Made by a program: the position numbers and the translations under genes. From the NCBI GenBank assembly GCA_050287085.1, contig JBNKBE010000020.1, positions 48,949 to 112,948 on the forward strand: 64,000 nt of DNA, in the 5' to 3' direction. Below are positions 57,426 through 64,000 of the stretch, in pieces. Position 1 is the stretch's first letter. Each line of letters starts with the position of its first letter. The stretch is from Polyangiaceae bacterium (GTDB taxonomy: Bacteria > Myxococcota_A > Polyangia > Polyangiales > Polyangiaceae). The notes beneath the pieces are model-generated. The model had not been told where the DNA came from. It did no database searches and saw nothing but the letters and a program-made list of their open reading frames with translations.

Positions 57426-60400
57426 CTATAGGTGAACCTCAAATACGGTCGTGGTACCGCTCACCTCATTGGCCACGAGCAGAAGAGGCGTACCCGTTGG
57501 ACTGACCTCGGCGGGTACAAACTTCAAGCCTTCCGGGCCGAGATCGCCTGCCGCTTCACTCTCGGCGTCGGCTGCGAAGTTACGCGGGTTGACCCATGCC
57601 ACGTATTGGGGCGCGCTCGGCTCGGTGATGTCGAGCACAACCACACCTCCAACCCGTTCGAGTCCCACGAACGCATAGCTCTTGTCTCCAACGGTCCCGA
57701 CAACCACGGACTCGGGCTCGGGCCCCTTGGCGTCGCTGCGAGAGTCGAAAGACTGGTTGTCGTCATTGTCCGAGTTGAATCCGTTGGGCTCCTCTTCCCT
57801 CGCTATCGCCTCGAATAGATCACCGCTGTCCCAGACGAGATTGCCAAACGCATCCCAAAGGGTCACCGAACGCGCGCCGTAAGCATAAATGCGGTCATAG
57901 TCGCCATCACCGTCCAGATCTCCATCGAGCATAGAACACTGCAGGCGCCCAAGTTGCTCGTCCTGAAGCAGCGTCGCCTCACCAGGAAAGACGCCGTCGT
58001 CAAGATCCAGATCAGCAAGACGGCTCTCGTCATAGTCGCGGCTATCACCCTCGTTGGCCGAGAGATAATACGTGCGACCGTCTGCCGCCCGATAGCTCGC
58101 GACTCCATCCGGCATGTATTGGCCGTATACGTTCCAGTCCTGCAGATGGACTTCGTCGTCTTTGTCCGACGCGTCCAGGGAGTACCCTCCTTCAAACGAG
58201 ACGATGCCCAGCACTTCCTCCGTATGCTCGGTAGCCAAGACGATAGTTCCGTCTCCGGGCAGAGCCTCGGGCGCTAGACCGAAGTCATTGTCGTTGAGCA
58301 GGGCGATTCGCCCGTCATCCATCAGGGCCAACCCTTCCAGCTTGTCGCCCGCTACATAACCGAGAGAAGGTGGGTTGAAGAGCTTGAGCTTGTTCACCGG
58401 ACGAATCCCCTCCGCGGCGAGCTGCTCAGGACTGTGCTGTTCTAGCGTTCCCCCAGCAAATTCGCCGGCGAGCACGTCGCTTGCGCCCTTCAGGTCGACT
58501 TCGAATACCGACTTCTTCGCGGTGGGTTCAAAGGAAGAATCTCGCTCAACGACAAGGAACTTGCCATCACCCACGTAGGTCGCATCTCCAATCTTGTCGA
58601 CCTTGCTCTGACGTAGCGAGGGCGCTTCGAGCAGGTAAACATACTCGTGGACGGGTTGCCCGAACGTGGAATGTGTCTTGTCGGCGTCGATACCCAGCAT
58701 ACGGATGACCGAGGACGCATCGGAAGCGGCCCGATCGGGATTCGCAAGCGGAGTCTGTATGAACGCGTAGACGACCTGGTTGTCGGTATCGAGCGCGATC
58801 GCTTCGAAGCCACGGTTGGCTCGCCGGTTCCGGTATTGCGCCGGAAGGGTTTCCGTTCCGTAGGCGCCCGCGGCTGGACTACCAAGCGCCGCAGCGGCCG
58901 TGCCCGCGGGAACGAAACGACTCAGCATGACGCCATCAGCCTGGAAGTTGTAGATGGCCGGGCGGTACTCGTCACAAAGCCAGAACGAGTCGTCGGTGGG
59001 GTCGATCAGCAGACCTTCAAAATCACCTCCAAACGCGTCGTAGGGCAGGGCATGGCCCTCAGCATCCACCGGAAACTCGCTTGAATCGAGCTGCGGATCG
59101 TTGGGGCGTCCGCTTATCGGGGTCACCCCGTCCGGCCTCATCAGGGGGATGTCTCCCGCCTCGTCGACGACGAGCGTTTCGGCCTCTTCGTCGAGCACCA
59201 AACGCCGAATGACCGCCGCGTAGCCCGGCAATACGTGGGGACGTTCATCGCCGTCGTGTGTTGTGTTGATATCACTCGGATCGCCGTTGGGACCCCGGTC
59301 TGGAATGGTGTAGAAGATCTTGCGGCTTTCCGTGCTCTCGGATGCGGAAAACCACAGACCCGAGAAGCCACCCAGCAAGATGTCTTGCCCCGTCGCAGCC
59401 CCGGTTGGGGTGACAGTGCCGAGCACGGGACGCTCGGTGACGGTGAAGGTCTTCAGCACGGGACGGCCACGCGCATGATCCTTCAGCCCCAGGGGCACGA
59501 TGTCGACGATGCTCGCGGCACTCAGATCCTCGGGCAGCGCTACCACGGCAAAGGCGTTGTTTTCCTGGAGCGATACAAACGCCTGTGTGCCATCGGGCGA
59601 AACGGCCACGTACTCAGGTTCCAGATCTCCGCTGACGGTGATCTCTCCGGTCCCATCAGCAAAGAAGTCAGACGCGAGATTCGGAATACGAACCCCTTTG
59701 GCTCGCAGCTCCTCAATGCGAGCGTCGAACGCTCCAAAGCCTAGGTCGTACGCAAGCGGCGCCTCCGGCATGGAAACGTCGACGATCGTGATGGACCCCG
59801 GGGCGTCCGACAGGATTCGGTCGTTGTCGTCCCGGGCTTGCTCCCCTTCGCAGGCGACGACAACAGCGCTACGGCCTGCGACGAAGGTCAACATGTCCGG
59901 AAGTACCCCCACCACGACGCTGGAGACGAACTCCAGCGTTGTGGCATCGTAGAAAGCGACGCGACCTGCTGCCGTCGCATCTTTGGCAGCAACGGCAACA
60001 GCAACCAGCTCACCCCCCACCGCAACACTCGTCGTCACGTCCGCCGCAAAATCTCCGATGTCGGCAGCCGGATCGAGGGTCGCGCTCGCGGAGAGCGCTC
60101 CGCTCTGGCTCATTGTTAGCACGCGCACGTGGGCTGCGTTCGCATCGACCACAAATACGTGTCGCGACGACGCATGAAAGTCGACAATCTCGGCGGCCCC
60201 CTCGTCGAATACGCCGGAGCGGTCCACCGCCAGAAAGCGAAGCACTCCGTCGCTGGGGTAGGCTGAGTAGTCGGGCGCGTCGCCTGCGTCCGGATTCGAA
60301 ACACCGGCGTCCATCATCGCAGCATCGTCGTCCGCGCTCGCAGCGTCGTCGTCCGCGCCCGCAGCGTCATCGTCCGCGCTCGCGCCGTCGTCGTCCGCGC

Positions 60401-60632
60401 CCGCAGCGTCATCGTCCGCGCTCGCAGCGTCATCGTCCGCGCTCGCAGCATCGTCGTCCGCGCTCGCAGCGTCGTCGTCCGCGCTCGCGCCGTCGTCGTC
60501 CGCGCTCGCGCCGGCGGTCGGAACGCCACCATCCGGACCTGACTCCGCGGTCTTGTCATCGCCGCAAGCCCCTGTACCAAGGCCTGTAACGAGTAGCGGA
60601 AGCACAAGCTTCCAATAAGAAGGATTCTTCAT
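57426..60632 (-). CDS. Choice-of-anchor I / alkaline phosphatase-like lipoprotein with nested esterase-like-phytase domain
   Basis: Lipobox TGAC. ChoI N-half: FDEGAAEI, G.LPDM, EGE, DLEPEY, LQENNA, PLG.KDH. Insert: GGFSGL, DRGPN, D.EG, DEYRP, NRGFE, DKIGD, K.EG, NDNDFG. ChoI C-half: DASDKD, YMPD, ANEGD.R, KGPEPE, GLER.GG, GDLGPEG, NEVSGT. Confidence 0.85.
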   Translation of the reverse strand: MKNPSYWKLVLPLLVTGLGTGACGDDKTAESGPDGGVPTAGASADDDGASADDDAASADDDAASADDDAASADDDAAGADDDGASADDDAAGADDDAASADDDAAMMDAGVSNPDAGDAPDYSAYPSDGVLRFLAVDRSGVFDEGAAEIVDFHASSRHVFVVDANAAHVRVLTMSQSGALSASATLDPAADIGDFAADVTTSVAVGGELVAVAVAAKDATAAGRVAFYDATTLEFVSSVVVGVLPDMLTFVAGRSAVVVACEGEQARDDNDRILSDAPGSITIVDVSMPEAPLAYDLGFGAFDARIEELRAKGVRIPNLASDFFADGTGEITVSGDLEPEYVAVSPDGTQAFVSLQENNAFAVVALPEDLSAASIVDIVPLGLKDHARGRPVLKTFTVTERPVLGTVTPTGAATGQDILLGGFSGLWFSASESTESRKIFYTIPDRGPNGDPSDINTTHDGDERPHVLPGYAAVIRRLVLDEEAETLVVDEAGDIPLMRPDGVTPISGRPNDPQLDSSEFPVDAEGHALPYDAFGGDFEGLLIDPTDDSFWLCDEYRPAIYNFQADGVMLSRFVPAGTAAAALGSPAAGAYGTETLPAQYRNRRANRGFEAIALDTDNQVVYAFIQTPLANPDRAASDASSVIRMLGIDADKTHSTFGQPVHEYVYLLEAPSLRQSKVDKIGDATYVGDGKFLVVERDSSFEPTAKKSVFEVDLKGASDVLAGEFAGGTLEQHSPEQLAAEGIRPVNKLKLFNPPSLGYVAGDKLEGLALMDDGRIALLNDNDFGLAPEALPGDGTIVLATEHTEEVLGIVSFEGGYSLDASDKDDEVHLQDWNVYGQYMPDGVASYRAADGRTYYLSANEGDSRDYDESRLADLDLDDGVFPGEATLLQDEQLGRLQCSMLDGDLDGDGDYDRIYAYGARSVTLWDAFGNLVWDSGDLFEAIAREEEPNGFNSDNDDNQSFDSRSDAKGPEPESVVVGTVGDKSYAFVGLERVGGVVVLDITEPSAPQYVAWVNPRNFAADAESEAAGDLGPEGLKFVPAEVSPTGTPLLLVANEVSGTTTVFEVHL
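60324..60512. repeat. 21-bp tandem repeat x9 encoding (G/A)A(S/G)ADDD
   Basis: Nine near-identical units counted in the DNA and in the translation. Confidence 0.95.
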
Positions 60633-61328
60633 AGTTGGCTCCGCTTCGGGGCGTAGGTGGGGCCCCAATGCCCTGGTTCCAACGCTAGACCACCATCCAA
60701 TGCAGACGCTGAACCAACCCCGAAAGCGGCAACGTCATAGACGCTGGCGCTCCCCTTGGACCGACGTCCCGGTAGCAAGCTGTCAACGATTGTGTGAACA
60801 AGATGCGGTGGAGCCGAAGGGCCCGCAGGGCCTCCATCGCCGCGGGTGAGGCAGCTTGACGACCGAGAGCTCGGCCGTCGCTCATACGCGTGCCAAACCA
60901 GCCCGAGGAAATCGCTGGGGGCTTGGACTCTTGGACGGCTTCGGGGGGCTGCGCATCGCGACGGTCTGCGACTGCGTTCTGGCGCGCATACCCATTCGAG
61001 CTCAGCGTTCGACGGCTGGCCTGATGTTTACCTGTACGCGTCCGATGAGGGTCCGATGAGGCTTGCTCACGAGGCAAAACCAAGCGCGCAGTTCCGGAGG
61101 GCCAGCTTGATAAGCTATTAGCGGCGCACGCGGCGTTCGAGCGTGACGTTCTCGGTCTCACAAGTCACCCAACGTCCTCCGGGCTGGACCGGCATGGGTA
61201 GTCTGAGGGGGAGCTCACGGTCCTCCATCCGTGTTGGGGTTTGAGTCGAACGCGTCGAGACGTGCGCCGGCTACTCCCAGCGCCGTAGCGGCGGAGCGCG
61301 CCGTCAACCCCCCAGTCGTCACAATAGT

Positions 61329-61737
61329 TGTCGCCTTTTCTAAACCTCTCTCAGGGGCGAGAAGTGCGACCAGCAAGTGCAAATACAGAATCGACGTTAT
61401 CCCATCGAGTTGAAAGAGTCGGTGGTCAGGCGCTACCTCAGTACGGAGGCGAGTTTCCGCGAGCTAGCCGAAGAAATTGGCGCGAGCGTCTGGTCAGTCA
61501 GGTCTTGGGTGCGCGAGTATCAGGCCCAAGGCACCGTGGAAAAAAGAAGAAGCAAACAAGAACAGGTCCACTCCAGACGCGCGCAGCCCCGAGGAGAAGC
61601 TCCGATTGATTCTCACGGCCAAGGGACATTCCGAAGAGAAACGCGGGGAATTTCTGCGCCGGGAGGGCATTCGAGACGGCGACTTGGAGCGCTGGGAGCA
61701 GGACGCATTGACCGGGCTCAAGGGCGTGGTCACTTAG
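61329..61737 (+). pseudogene. Truncated, frameshifted IS3-like transposase orfA (HTH) with possible left end
   Basis: RYPIELKE.VVRR...LAEEIG.S..SV..W.R in frame 61377 continues in the +1 frame as RSPEEKLRLI......RGEFLRREG....L..W...AL. TGTCGC at 61329 is a possible terminus. No DDE domain follows. Confidence 0.7.
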
Positions 61738-61917
61738 TGCACCCGATGCAGGAGGTGCCGCCGCAGGAGCCAATCCGTCACTGGGTGTGTAGCTTCCCCT
61801 GAGGTATGCGCTCCGTTTTGGGCTACAGCCGAGAGCTATGCCGTGCCGCAGCGGCGGCGTGCTCACAAGAGCTGTCTCGCTCTGAAGCGTCGCCCCAAAA
61901 CGCGCCCGGGGCCGCCC
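61731..61917 (+). pseudogene. IS91/ISCR-like (Y2 HUH) transposase fragment
   Basis: Reading through TGA at 61800 gives HLV...EVPPQEPIRHWVCSFP*GMRSVLGYSRELC.......ELSRS. This resembles the HLVD.VLP..P.RQWV.S.PW.LR..L segment that follows the zinc-binding domain of IS91-family transposases. Confidence 0.6.
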
Positions 61918-62169
61918 TCAGCCGATCACCGGCCGGAGCCCCGTGATCCCTCACTCCCGCTCCGGCGGACCCACCTTTCGCCGTTCTTTCGCGCACAAAC
62001 CACAGCATCAACTACCTCCCCCTCGCGGCATAAGCAGCGCCCAGCGAGCAAACGGCAGCATAGCTCGATGCGCGCCGCACCCGTGCCGGAACCCCGAAAG
62101 AGCCTACCGCACGGCAAACCGTGATTCCGATTTCGCATACCGAAGAGCCGCAGTACGCTCACTGACAAC

Positions 62170-62214
62170 CGCGGCTTTGACAGCGACGTCCCGCGGGTGA
62201 ATTAGTAGTTGGGT
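62170..62214 (+). mobile_element. Candidate integron attI-like site / 5' cassette boundary
   Basis: Core GTTGGGT (GTTRRRY) at 62208-62214. It is preceded by AT-rich GAATTAGTA and TTGACA at 62177. No attC-type palindrome is seen upstream. Confidence 0.45.
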
Positions 62215-63951
62215 GGTCCGCAAATTTGTCCCGTCAGCCAGGAACAAGAACCTGAAGTCATCACAAGCGACCGCTCTCCTCGACAAACTTAGAGGCCACG
62301 ATTTCGCCGGCTTTCGGCTCGACAAGGCCATCGGTACCGGCGCGACAGCAGGTGTCTACCGCGCCGTGAACGATGACGGCGTCGTCGCGGCGGTCAAGAT
62401 CTACGAGGCCCAGTTCGCAGATGAGGAGCGGCTCCGGCGCGAGCTCTCGCTTCATGGGCACGATTGTCCCCACCTAGTTAGAATCTACGGCGGCGGGCGG
62501 ACTGCGTTGGAGGAGACGGAACTAAGATACCTTGTGATGGAGTTCATTGATGGCAAGGAGCTCGCGCAAGTTCGAAAGAGCAAGGCACCGATTCCGGACG
62601 CAGAGATTCGGAGACTTCTTCGCCAGCTCTGCATTGCCTGCCTGTACCTGCATGAACGCGACCTCTGCCACCGGGACATCAAACCGCAGAATATCAAGCT
62701 CCGCTCGAATGGCGAGCTGGTTCTCCTGGACATGGGGGTCCTGCGCCCCGCCGGCGACTCTGACTTAACCCAAGAAGGCAGGAACATTGCCACTCGCCGG
62801 TACTCGCCGCCTGAGCTGCAGCACCGACGTGAAGACTCCAGCCGTGATGGCCTAGAGGCCGTAACGGTGTATCAGGTGGGCGCAGTGCTGTATGAGTTGA
62901 TTCAACGCACCAAGCTCTTCGCCAACGTTCCGGATCATCCTGATGCAACGCTGTCACGCGCCATCGACACGGAGATTCCGCGCTTTGTCGGCGCGGAATC
63001 AACGGGGGCTGACCTCCGAGAAGCGACCCTTCGCTGCTTGGTGAAGCACCCTGCTGGTCGTCCCAAACTGAACGAGTTGCTTGCACTCGCCGAACTTGTG
63101 ACGACCCCCTCCACATCGCTGGTTGCGGCCCGCCGAGCGCGTGGCCTTCGAGCAGCAGCCGAGATCGGGTTCGCTGAGCGCACTACGGAGGCGCACCTTT
63201 CCGCGCTATCGAACGATAAGACAATTGCGATCACCACAGCGCAAGAGGCCATCACGTTGGCTAACCTTCCGGAGCCGAAGTTTGATCTCACAGAGCTAAT
63301 TGGCAACAAGTTGCTAGTTGCAACTTTCCCGCAAAGCATAGAGCACGGACTCCCTACTCTCCTGATGCTGGCACTCCTCTTCGAAACACAGCCTGTCGAT
63401 AGTGCGCTACTGATCCGTGGTTGTGGTCTGTATGGCAGTACCTTCGCGCCGGAACCGAAAGAGGTGCCTCATGTATTTATCCGTCGCGACAACAAGGGCC
63501 GAGTAGCGCATGAACCATCTACCCTGGCCATGTTGGAAGTCGTCTGGGAGCTCCCGCTCGACATAGGAACGTTCAAGGCGAAGGTTGCGACTTGGGCGGA
63601 CCAGCTCGCCAACATATACATGTCTCTCACGGAAGGCCCGTTCGAGGAATTGGTAGCGTACCGAAAGGAGGTTGCGGAAGCTCGCCGGCGAGGCGAGCGT
63701 TGCGCGCATCATCCGCGGTCGGTCGGGCCCCTCCTCTTCAACACGACAAAGCAACTTCCGATGAGCCCGCACAGCTGGAAGAACCGCTAGACAATCGGCC
63801 ACCCAACAAGGGTTTGAACCCGACCGGGCCCCTGAAGCGCCTCGCCAGCTGGTAGGTCATCGTCGGAAGGCAGCGAAGCGCCGCCTCTTCCTGAAGCTGA
63901 TGCCACCTGCTAGGTTGTCTTGAAAGGGCCCGGCAGGTTAAACCCGAGCCG
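62209..63951 (+). mobile_element. Integron gene cassette carrying a Ser/Thr kinase
   Basis: GTTGGGTGG at 62208-62216 is the exact reverse complement of CCACCCAAC at 63799-63807. A single ORF fills the interval and ends in an attC. Confidence 0.8.
62213..63790 (+). CDS. Hanks-type Ser/Thr protein kinase with unrecognised C-terminal domain
   Basis: IGTGATAGVY, AAVKIY, E in helix C, YLVMEFIDG, HRDIKPQNI, LLDMG, YSPPE, YQVGAVLYEL, P..RP. No TM helix evident. Start uncertain (GTG 62213 or CTG 62252). Confidence 0.9.
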   Translation: MVRKFVPSARNKNLKSSQATALLDKLRGHDFAGFRLDKAIGTGATAGVYRAVNDDGVVAAVKIYEAQFADEERLRRELSLHGHDCPHLVRIYGGGRTALEETELRYLVMEFIDGKELAQVRKSKAPIPDAEIRRLLRQLCIACLYLHERDLCHRDIKPQNIKLRSNGELVLLDMGVLRPAGDSDLTQEGRNIATRRYSPPELQHRREDSSRDGLEAVTVYQVGAVLYELIQRTKLFANVPDHPDATLSRAIDTEIPRFVGAESTGADLREATLRCLVKHPAGRPKLNELLALAELVTTPSTSLVAARRARGLRAAAEIGFAERTTEAHLSALSNDKTIAITTAQEAITLANLPEPKFDLTELIGNKLLVATFPQSIEHGLPTLLMLALLFETQPVDSALLIRGCGLYGSTFAPEPKEVPHVFIRRDNKGRVAHEPSTLAMLEVVWELPLDIGTFKAKVATWADQLANIYMSLTEGPFEELVAYRKEVAEARRRGERCAHHPRSVGPLLFNTTKQLPMSPHSWKNR

Positions 63952-63957
63952 TTGAGG
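63801..63957 (+). mobile_element. attC: Integron attC recombination site (~157 bp)
   Basis: R'' ACCCAAC at 63801-07, 5-bp spacer, L'' TTT(G)AACC at 63813-20. CG(A)CCGGGCCC pairs with GGGCCCGGCA. L' GGTTAAA at 63936-42 and R' GTTGAGG at 63951-57. Starts 11 bp after the kinase stop. Confidence 0.85.
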
Positions 63958-64000
63958 CCGTAGAAAAACCTACGAGACCCCTTGGATTGTAGCCTCGGGA

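Follow-up and report, generated by a model that had tools for sequence, protein, structure and literature searches.

The window, by which we mean the whole stretch of 64,000 nucleotides analysed here, carries close to its right end a gene for a Hanks-type Ser/Thr kinase. The gene lies between a copy of an attI site and an attC site and is a complete integron gene cassette. Table 1 lists the features of the locus. We describe the kinase and its cassette, then the distribution of related kinases, and conclude with the function that the gene may have.

Table 1. Features at the kinase locus (positions of the window)
Feature	Position	Strand	Details
Transposase helix-turn-helix remnant, orfA type	61377..61802	+	Pfam HTH_Tnp_1, E 1.3e-7
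Diverged copy of the intI-attI intervening region	62015..62210	+	compared with contig C15, 170755-170948
attI core	62190..62210	+	21/21 bases as in the attI on C15
Gene cassette	62209..63951	+	1743 bp crossover to crossover, G/TT at both ends; sequence, bracket control, attC model
Hanks-type Ser/Thr kinase	62213..63790	+	525 aa from GTG 62213; Pfam Pkinase 35-290, E 7e-31
C-terminal domain of the kinase	63113..63787	+	about residues 301-525; 44-residue helix, 4-5 stranded sheet, two helices (model)
attC	63799-63953	+	R'' 63799-63807, L'' 63813-63819, L' 63937-63943, R' 63951-63953
Putative IS1182-family element, left end	63954..64000	+	directly after the attC GTT; contig ends inside the element

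For the start of the kinase the CTG at 62252 (512 aa) appears to be the likelier codon; residue 14, encoded by this CTG, aligns with the first Met of the relatives and an AGGA lies 8 bases upstream. The protein shows the Hanks hallmarks (Gly loop, VAxK, helix C Glu, HRDxKxxN, DxG, xPE) with the catalytic residues K62, E77, H153-R154-D155, K157, N160 and D173-M-G175, and the model has a bilobal fold. An initial reading of the DNA from its letters alone (the sequence-only reading) had pointed to the variant motifs DMG and ATRRYSPPE, and we located them at residues 173-175 and 193-201, respectively. Thr186 in the activation segment (T186) is invariant in a 25-row alignment of the clade. At what we take to be the canonical position of the subdomain IX Asp this kinase has T218. 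The Asp is missing in 162 of the 163 readable family proteins (170 examined), and its absence is a family trait and not a sign of decay. The same reading had seen no evident transmembrane helix. This agrees with the hydropathy profile, as the highest 19-residue window reaches only 1.58 (residues 383-401) and is a beta strand in the model, and we predict a soluble kinase without membrane helix.

AlphaFold2 on a 28-row alignment gave a mean pLDDT of 91.3 and a pTM of 0.59 for the kinase, compared to a pLDDT of 34.8 for the single-sequence fold. The C-terminal domain, which had been described as unassignable, found no match in Pfam, NCBIfam, the atlas or the PDB sequences either (the PDB sequence profile gave one match at E 0.43). 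A word-based search with this domain returned only itself, and a comparison of its profile with the shorter tails seen in other clades gave only a weak match (best probability 27%, E 7e-4). In fold searches with the whole model the matches were taken up by kinase domains, and we therefore draw no conclusion on a new fold; among the high-ranking matches are AMPK and KA1-MARK1 chains, with 400-520 aligned columns at an rmsd near 30.

The kinase ORF is bracketed by GTTGGGTGG at 62208-62216 and by its exact complement CCACCCAAC at 63799-63807, as had been noticed from the letters. For all ORFs of the genome with at least 300 aa (n=3111) we looked for a 9-mer near the start and its complement near the stop. 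A GTT-led 9-mer with an exact complement was found for 3 of the 3111 ORFs including the kinase, and the other two belong to the cassette array on contig C35, where attC sites flank them. In the 5' core site the bases after GTT complement R'' at 9/9 positions. The cassette consists of a single ORF read towards the attC, and the observation that little extra DNA lies between the boundaries holds: the ORF starts 4 bases (GTG) or 43 bases (CTG) past the crossover and stops 8 bases ahead of R''. One contig of run X1, which may itself be the source of the assembly, covers 61512-63953 with zero differences. We rejected the joint 62210-63805 as a trace of the excised cassette, since it corresponds to a paralogue on C15 with the same attI core and a 94% identical attC.

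The complement at 63799-63807 was also proposed to open an attC, and both the hairpin and the covariance model bear this out. The boxes, with boundaries read by eye, are (CC)ACCCAAC for R'', TTTGAAC for L'', GTTAAAC for L' and GTT for R'. The bottom strand folds with -39 kcal/mol (z = -3.54), and none of 200 shuffles was as good. For the covariance-model check suggested by the sequence-only reading we built an independent model on six further attC sites, with this attC and its 94%, 81% and 69% look-alikes excluded. It matched 63801-63957 at 47.8 bits (E 1.8e-12), and the next best match in the window reached 12.8 bits. The site is among the 10 genome-wide matches of an arm-pairing scan and belongs to the genome's own family of 140-165 bp attC sites, of which we found at least 16. 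With the first cassette's attC in the C15 integron it shares 94% identity.

The interval given initially ended at 63957. Its last four bases, 63954-63957 (GAGG), lie outside the attC and are part of the insertion sequence. An identical end on C15 leads into the start of a transposase, and the transposase pieces, from copies that are only partly assembled, match NF033551 below its cut-off. The related left and right ends have GTT on both sides, and IS1182-type insertions in the attC GTT occur at five other attC sites as well. We rejected the element as a cassette itself, as GTT follows its right ends, which consist of inverted repeats and not of attC sites. Insertion sequences of the IS1111-attC group land in attC sites. 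The present element does the same, though with IS1182-type ends, GTT on both sides and a position exactly at R'.

The site at 62208 is not the end of an upstream attC; the identity to C15 and the covariance model indicate a copy of attI. The region 62015..62210 shows 67% identity to the C15 region over 198 columns (E 3e-5 to 4e-6), and the identity of the attI core stops exactly past the GTT at 62208-62210. The 21-base core has 2 copies in this genome and none in 17 same-genus genomes; the reversed control pattern did not occur. The 5' site of the kinase cassette is thus an attI by homology, with predicted activity. No intI adjoins this attI as in a complete integron, and tblastn found no similarity to IntI in the whole window. 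The place where the integrase gene would be expected is occupied by the helix-turn-helix remnant, which we take to be of IS3 type. The integrase on C15 is intact (TIGR02249: 437.9 bits with a cut-off of 265, no internal stop), and it is the only intact one, with no second IntI detected in the genome by tblastn. Given the attI copy here and the sole intact IntI on another contig, the kinase is probably a first-position cassette at an integrase-less platform, where IntI would have placed it in trans. The cassette reading has thereby become more precise than it was at the outset. If the promoter of the platform is still intact, a cassette in this position would be transcribed. Promoter calling gave no sigma-70 site upstream of the cassette, and by eye there is a TTGACA at 62177-62182 but no good -10 box. 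Together with the CTG start codon, this suggests that expression may be low.

The kinase belongs to a large and patchy family without the subdomain IX Asp. With only 3 candidates scored in each genome, it turned up in 2 of 401 genomes from the order and in 1 of 401 from the phylum, counts that include its own genome. It scored 563 bits compared to at most 104 for the other 69 of the 70 kinase-like matches in its own genome. The sparse spread, the gap in score and the lack of a membrane helix agree with the initial view that this is not a housekeeping myxobacterial kinase. In a quick tree with four kinases of the same genome as outgroup, it groups with the mobile family and within a well-supported long-tailed clade (27 rows, SH-aLRT 99). 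Two of six loci of this clade lie in cassettes, the second cassette-borne member (L091) being on a separate branch. The clade locus L016 has no attC and adjoins a metallo-beta-lactamase/rhodanese gene. Among solitary relatives, L089 lies beside toxin-antitoxin-type genes and L267 beside a YgjP peptidase.

Outside the clade, the gene neighbours follow a common pattern. At 25 of the 27 readable loci (at least 200 bases downstream) an SF1 helicase is next to the kinase (24) or fused to it (1), and 21 of these 25 carry an orphan third gene. Among the matches listed, three further genome scans gave generic kinases and one usable locus (L278). The family would mostly act from the head of a kinase-helicase-orphan trio, with a kinase of 455-480 aa, a helicase of 370-390 aa and a third protein of 450-500 aa. 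The third gene gave no match in PADLOC, Pfam, NCBIfam or the atlas and no fold; a phosphatase or nuclease partner was not detected in the trio, and the trio kinase had no match in the phage collection. The trio occurs on a Cupriavidus plasmid and on a Rhizobium plasmid; the Rhizobium copy lies directly beside Hachiman genes and near genes labelled DarT and RelA/SpoT. Other neighbours include a type I methyltransferase (type I RM), an Argonaute and PADLOC PDC-M41A. A defence match was found at 6 of 10 scanned loci, a hand-picked choice for which there is no control set. The long-tailed clade has the SF1 helicase at 0 of 4 readable loci, and its members have a longer tail and do without the trio partners. 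At the present locus the attC follows the kinase directly, and neither SF1 helicase nor orphan gene was found. As to the initial question of whether homologues are attC-flanked or lie in defence islands, some trio loci lie beside defence genes, and most relatives are not attC-flanked.

Stk2 of staphylococci acts by an abortive-infection mechanism. According to the available text of PMC11341870, this single kinase suffices for defence. Like Stk2, the present protein is encoded by a single gene on mobile DNA and is a soluble Hanks-type kinase whose C-terminal domain has no assigned fold. Unlike Stk2, it belongs to a family without the subdomain IX Asp, and no Stk2 model appeared among the best 25 of 34 PADLOC matches. 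The kinases of PD-T4-6 and MADS (MAD6) match in the kinase domain only, and the kinase reached 125-140 bits with these models, about half the score of four unrelated kinases (214-297 bits); NF047741 gave 83 bits with a cut-off of 460. The PADLOC kinase matches are generic, and the proposed check against defence models thus returned no specific support. The best structural match of the kinase domain is the housekeeping-type PknB (1mru_A: Z 27.2, rmsd 2.4, 253 aligned, residues 26-301). In contrast to PknB/Stk1, the present kinase has no membrane helix, no PASTA repeats and a sporadic spread, and it scores 102 bits with NF033483 (cut-off 450). Mokosh couples a kinase and a helicase, and P4 satellites may have a 'kinase-helicase' system. 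The latter was not found in the available text of PMC9122126 or by literature search. The trio resembles the multi-gene systems KKP, Mokosh (MkoA), BREX (PglW), Bandua and Aernus, as far as they are described in the available parts of PMC11341870 and PMC13586616, in that a kinase and its partners lie in defence loci, and differs from them in the composition and protein sizes given above. CapK was rejected as a relative, being an unrelated GHKL-type kinase in the accessible text of PMC13373217.

Integron cassettes often carry defence genes (PMC13434031 in its available part, summarising Darracq 2025 and Kieffer 2025). In the mobile-integron preprint a kinase is named only once (phage gp0.7); the Darracq paper and the supplements of both works may list kinase cassettes. 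The present cassette resembles the anti-phage cassettes of chromosomal integrons, with a single promoter-less ORF between GTT crossover and attC, and its genome has IntI and related attC sites as chromosomal integrons do. It differs from usual cassettes in its 1.7 kb cargo and in an attI copy without adjoining integrase.

Most readable relatives head a kinase-helicase-orphan trio and several lie beside defence genes, so the kinase is likely a stand-alone anti-phage switch. We estimate a probability of roughly 55% that this cassette at the attI copy encodes a stand-alone abortive-infection kinase. Judged from its context, a defence role as such is somewhat favoured. The role proposed initially has gained context support from the wider family, while protection itself is what we infer from that context. 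In this model the soluble kinase would be activated only when a phage product engages its C-terminal domain, and would be silent before. Kinase domains would be drawn together by the long helix and T186 would become phosphorylated, the step expected for an HRD kinase; the active kinase would then phosphorylate host proteins and thereby arrest the infected cell.

The kinase could also be an orphaned or regulatory part that needs the helicase and the third gene, or that regulates toxin-antitoxin genes or other cassettes; by itself it would then give no defence. Orthologues of both trio partners are missing from its own genome (best 57 and 21 bits; genome 96.8% complete), the helicase is kept at nearly all readable loci outside the clade, and L089/L090 carry a version cut to 311 aa. 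Against this, the long-tailed clade is well supported and lacks the helicase at its readable loci, and its catalytic residues and tail are conserved, which fits long selection as a single gene. We regard the orphaned part as unlikely. Quite unlikely, too, is a conflict toxin or stress kinase with no link to phages, serving cell-to-cell competition, dormancy or cassette-array stabilisation and travelling in cassettes by chance. The neighbours of L089 would fit, as would the other cassettes of the genome, which presumably include toxin-antitoxin-like and SMI1/KNR4-like genes; 1 of 12 scanned cassette proteins matches PADLOC (PDC-M40A). However, the present cassette holds no antitoxin gene or secretion signal, and the neighbours in the wider family are phage-defence genes. 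The reading as an ordinary signalling kinase of myxobacteria, which entered a cassette accidentally or was integrated at some random GTT of the genome (attG), is highly improbable and already weakened: the genome has its 70 kinase-like matches, the GC content of the ORF (0.59) is close to that of the neighbouring gene (0.62) and IntI can insert cassettes outside att sites (10.1101/2022.09.11.507474, available text), but the cassette sits at a site copied from the attI of this same genome, the kinase groups apart from the four outgroup kinases, 0 of 7 same-genus genomes carry it and no kinase of any sort adjoins the homologue of the neighbouring gene in the four same-genus genomes compared.

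Extending the stand-alone kinase to the whole family, we tentatively suggest that there is a widespread kinase defence family, present in no catalogue searched here, and that this kinase is its single-gene version carried by cassettes. Elsewhere the family would form the kinase-SF1 helicase-orphan trio across many bacterial groups. In the long-tailed clade, phage sensing may have passed to the tail, which would make the kinase a complete abortive-infection system by itself. Integrons would have captured it repeatedly, in this genome at a second platform that has no integrase and is served in trans.

Should a phage phenotype be absent, the locus would still be a well-formed cassette of the ordinary kind, carrying a kinase whose role is yet to be assigned. 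How cassette arrays are read in fragmented assemblies is affected by two features of the locus: the second attI platform, which lacks an integrase of its own, and the insertion sequence, which targets the crossover of the attC. In the sources as available, few kinase-based phage defences have been characterised (Stk2, PD-T4-6, KKP and a few others). With one-gene and three-gene versions of one kinase family, the transition from a multi-part to a self-contained system could be tested directly, and so could the signal that the tail senses.

The kinase gene of the window is a member of the class of integron gene cassettes, and the cassette is real. Both brackets were found in the sequence at 62208 and 63799-63807, where the sequence-only reading had placed them, and from crossover to crossover the cassette measures 1743 bp. 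The window closes contig C20 of the host genome (G000; 6.2 Mb, 96.8% complete), in which we observed the 9-base bracket at 3 of the 3111 ORFs of at least 300 aa, namely the window kinase and two cassettes of the array on contig C35. When the bracket is shortened to 7 bases the count rises to 22 of the same ORFs and thus the length of the match matters. The bottom-strand fold of 63799-63958 beats 200 of 200 shuffles (z = −3.54), and an arm-pairing scan of the genome gave 10 matches including the window attC, 7 of which are cassette sites. The proposed attC was borne out by an independent covariance model trained on six other attC sites, of which five lie in the genome and one at the metagenomic locus L091, with the window site and its closest copies left out: it scored the window attC at 47.8 bits (E = 1.8e-12) and the runner-up in the window at 12.8 bits. 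A covariance model trained with the window site identified 16 sites at E ≤ 2e-13 in the supplied stretches of the genome, 8 of them outside the training set. One contig of sequencing run X1 covers 61512-63953 with zero differences and about as deeply as the flank is covered, though the assembly may derive from X1, and this contig is hence not independent.

Coordinates of the cassette features in the window and of kinase-helicase-third gene (trio) operons at other loci
Feature	Coordinates	Strand	Basis or remark
Transposase helix-turn-helix remnant, in place of intI	61377-61802		upstream of attI copy
5' bracket GTTGGGTGG	62208-62216	+	sequence
Kinase ORF, 525 codons	62213-63790	+	ORF call
3' bracket CCACCCAAC	63799-63807	+	sequence; complement of 5' bracket
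Trio operon	L093:7929-11978
Trio operon	L018:7878-12248
Trio operon	L277:9001-12930
Trio operon	L276:9001-12935
Trio operon	L278:6890-10941
Trio operon	L020:7926-11236		kinase-helicase fusion

The sole intact integron integrase of the genome sits on contig C15 (TIGR02249, 437.9 bits, cut-off 265); tblastn detected no second IntI in the genome and there is no IntI similarity within the window. Window positions 62015-62210 share 67% identity over 198 columns with the C15 DNA between intI and the first cassette, the final 21 bases equal the C15 attI exactly and the identity stops right after GTT. This 21-mer has 2 copies in the genome and none in 17 same-genus genomes, and a 20-base version of the core had no match in the species collection. 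This homology marks the 5' site as a copy of attI, and the simplest reading would be a second platform whose integrase has been lost or was never there, with the kinase as its first cassette. Cassettes are also reported to insert at random attG sites (10.1101/2022.09.11.507474); such an insertion leaves the homology to the C15 attI region unexplained.

The C15 integron (L007:8989-12848) is complete: a long proline-rich stretch comes before IntI, and attI is followed by a two-ORF first cassette whose attC is 94% identical to the kinase attC. Its ORFs encode 213 aa without a match, which we take to be mannitol-repressor-like, and 357 aa (PIN_12). Two cassette clusters without adjacent integrase (L010, C35:1-11000; L011, C29:15000-33000) have 5-6 strong attC matches each, are broken by IS remnants and carry a GNAT-like gene, toxin-antitoxin-like pairs and a PDC-M40A match. 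The small contig C66 (L006:1080-1607) contains a 117-bp attC-like hairpin near the C-terminal fragment of a non-IntI tyrosine recombinase.

From 63954 (to 64000) the window holds the left end of an insertion element; pieces of its transposase match, below cut-off, the IS1182 model. Across the genome 7 of 8 left ends are preceded by CGTT, which in 6 of those 7 is an attC R' (C15, C20, C29, C58, C65, C68), and GTT comes next at 8 of 9 right ends (exact GTTRRRY in 6, GTTAGCC in one); a tenth row proved to be a reversed left end and is not counted. The element therefore lands on GTT, which is present on both sides, and the upstream attC keeps its core. GTT-flanked insertions at attC sites were noted for the window, C15, C29, C58, C65, C68, C19 and C38, and one copy (C18/C30 ends) at a GTT outside any attC. 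Near 19279 of C29 (L011:4160-4280) ∼70 bases of the left end are fused ahead of a GNAT-like cassette and the remaining element is gone. Cassette arrays are broken in the assembly, as two IS copies bound each of the short contigs C58, C65 and C68. We saw the junction pattern in none of 150 other genomes from the family, and among the paper titles listed in literature searches none concerned IS insertion at attC GTT.

Pfam Pkinase spans residues 35-290 of the protein and the catalytic motifs are complete (G41-G48, K62, E77, H153-R154-D155-x-K157-x-x-N160, D173-M-G175, P199-P-E201), including the variant DMG noticed earlier. By these motifs it is a Hanks-type kinase, with a deviation that its whole family shares. 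Among 168 readable motifs of the family we counted DLG in 136, DFG in 24 and DMG in 6, and the subdomain IX Asp is absent in 162 of 163 readable proteins (170 examined). The AlphaFold2 model from a 28-row alignment (mean pLDDT 91.3, pTM 0.59) matches PknB across residues 26-301 (Z 27.2, rmsd 2.4, 253 aligned) and predicts a tail of a 44-residue helix, a 4-5 stranded sheet and two helices. As the sequence-only reading had it, the protein shows no membrane helix, and its tail, which that reading could not assign, likewise had no family match in Pfam, NCBIfam, atlas, word-based and PDB-sequence searches. With the whole model Foldseek ranked AMPK and KA1-containing MARK1 chains high, in alignments extending beyond the kinase domain at rmsd near 30, which does no more than hint at a KA1-like fold of the tail. 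Relatives begin at residue 14 (CTG at 62252-62254, AGGA 8 bases upstream), and the crossover region overlaps the GTG start at 62213. A product of 512 aa from CTG, a weak start codon, would therefore be likelier; the start is possibly weakened.

An indexed search found eight relatives (35-54% identity over 72-97% of the length), and the labels of two, Polyangiaceae and Labilithrix, suggest a myxobacterial host. When 1.84 billion representatives were searched with a profile, at least 150 proteins matched at E ≤ 3e-70; most have 440-550 aa, and in many the alignment reaches the tail. We built a quick tree from 89 kinase domains (85 family rows and four kinases of the genome), where the window kinase falls within a 27-row long-tailed clade (SH-aLRT 99). 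This clade is rare: own genome counted, we found it in 2 of 401 order genomes, 1 of 401 phylum genomes and 0 of 7 same-genus genomes, in a survey that scored three candidates per genome so that misses are possible. In four same-genus genomes the homologue of the window's neighbouring gene has other neighbours, which differ among the four. At 57426-60668 the minus strand of the window encodes a protein of 1080 aa that has choice-of-anchor I and phytase-like domains and, close to its N-terminus, an acidic ADDD repeat. Of 17 same-genus genomes 5 have this protein, beside neighbours that differ.

With duplicates merged the clade has six distinct loci (window, L091, L016, L023, L089/L090 and L267; L023 placed by similarity, not tree), two of which, the window and L091, are cassettes. 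At L091 a same-family attC, which was in the training set of the attC model, ends 20 bases before the kinase start, and the 35 bases remaining past the stop begin attC-like by eye. Its kinase and that of the window occupy separate starred branches of the quick tree. Neither a covariance model tuned to the host genome nor the heuristic identified an attC at the other four loci. The kinase is followed by a metallo-beta-lactamase/rhodanese gene at L016, shortened to 311 aa between toxin-antitoxin-type genes at L089, and head to head with a short ORF and a YgjP peptidase at L267.

We favour, at a probability of about 0.55, a stand-alone, tail-triggered abortive kinase cassette served by IntI in trans, proposed by analogy with Stk2, in which phosphorylation of host proteins stops the infected cell. 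IntI encoded on C15 would act on the window attI copy, and the first position in the array would allow expression provided that the promoter is still intact; ahead of the ORF no sigma-70 site was called. The kinase would stay silent until its tail meets a phage product and then autophosphorylate, a step proposed because it is an HRD kinase with T186 of the activation segment invariant in the clade alignment. Once active it would phosphorylate host proteins and halt the infected cell.

A possible but doubtful alternative is an orphaned part that needs the helicase and third gene of the wider family. Of 33 loci outside the clade we dropped 6 with less than 200 bases downstream; in the 27 counted (three Pseudomonas loci are near copies and 11 were assigned by score rather than tree) an SF1 helicase of 370-390 aa lies next to the kinase in 24 and is fused to it in one (L020), and two are early-stopping kinases without helicase. 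A third gene of 450-500 aa occurs in 21 helicase loci, the other four being too short to show it. The partner profiles were built from 10 and 12 of the counted loci; L269, L276, L277 and L278 are independent matches. The genome has no orthologue of either partner, and the helicase was found at none of the four long-tailed clade loci with at least 200 bases downstream.

Against the favoured defence reading, most relatives lie outside cassettes and few other cassette proteins of the genome match PADLOC (1 of 12 scanned, and 0 of 2 from C15). The window kinase scored 125-140 bits with the PADLOC kinase models versus 214-297 for four unrelated kinases, and does not qualify as PD-T4-6 or MAD6; these matches are generic. 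No Stk2 model stood among the best 25 of its 34 PADLOC matches. The defence role suggested earlier is favoured by the family's neighbours, which include defence genes, and not by the kinase's own matches. A conflict or stress kinase unrelated to phage is unlikely, slightly more so than the orphaned part. An ordinary signalling kinase is improbable; the tree sets the family apart from the four genome kinases (SH-aLRT 100).

The trio forms a conserved operon in Proteobacteria, Acidobacteria and metagenomes, at variable loci, with integrases near the kinases at L018 and L021. Its third protein had no match in PADLOC, Pfam, NCBIfam or atlas. On the Rhizobium plasmid NZ_CP016292.1 the trio adjoins Hachiman hamA/hamB, with genes annotated DarT, RelA/SpoT and FRG nearby. 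Of 10 neighbours scanned in the wider family, hand-picked and without a control set, 6 match PADLOC (HamA, HamB, type I methyltransferase, Argonaute, PDC-M41A, C3a187). The literature searched, mostly non-subscription, holds no description of the kinase family, trio or a kinase cassette, and supplements may list kinase cassettes. The trio is a candidate defence system absent from PADLOC 2.0, and the wider trio is a better lead than the window cassette itself.
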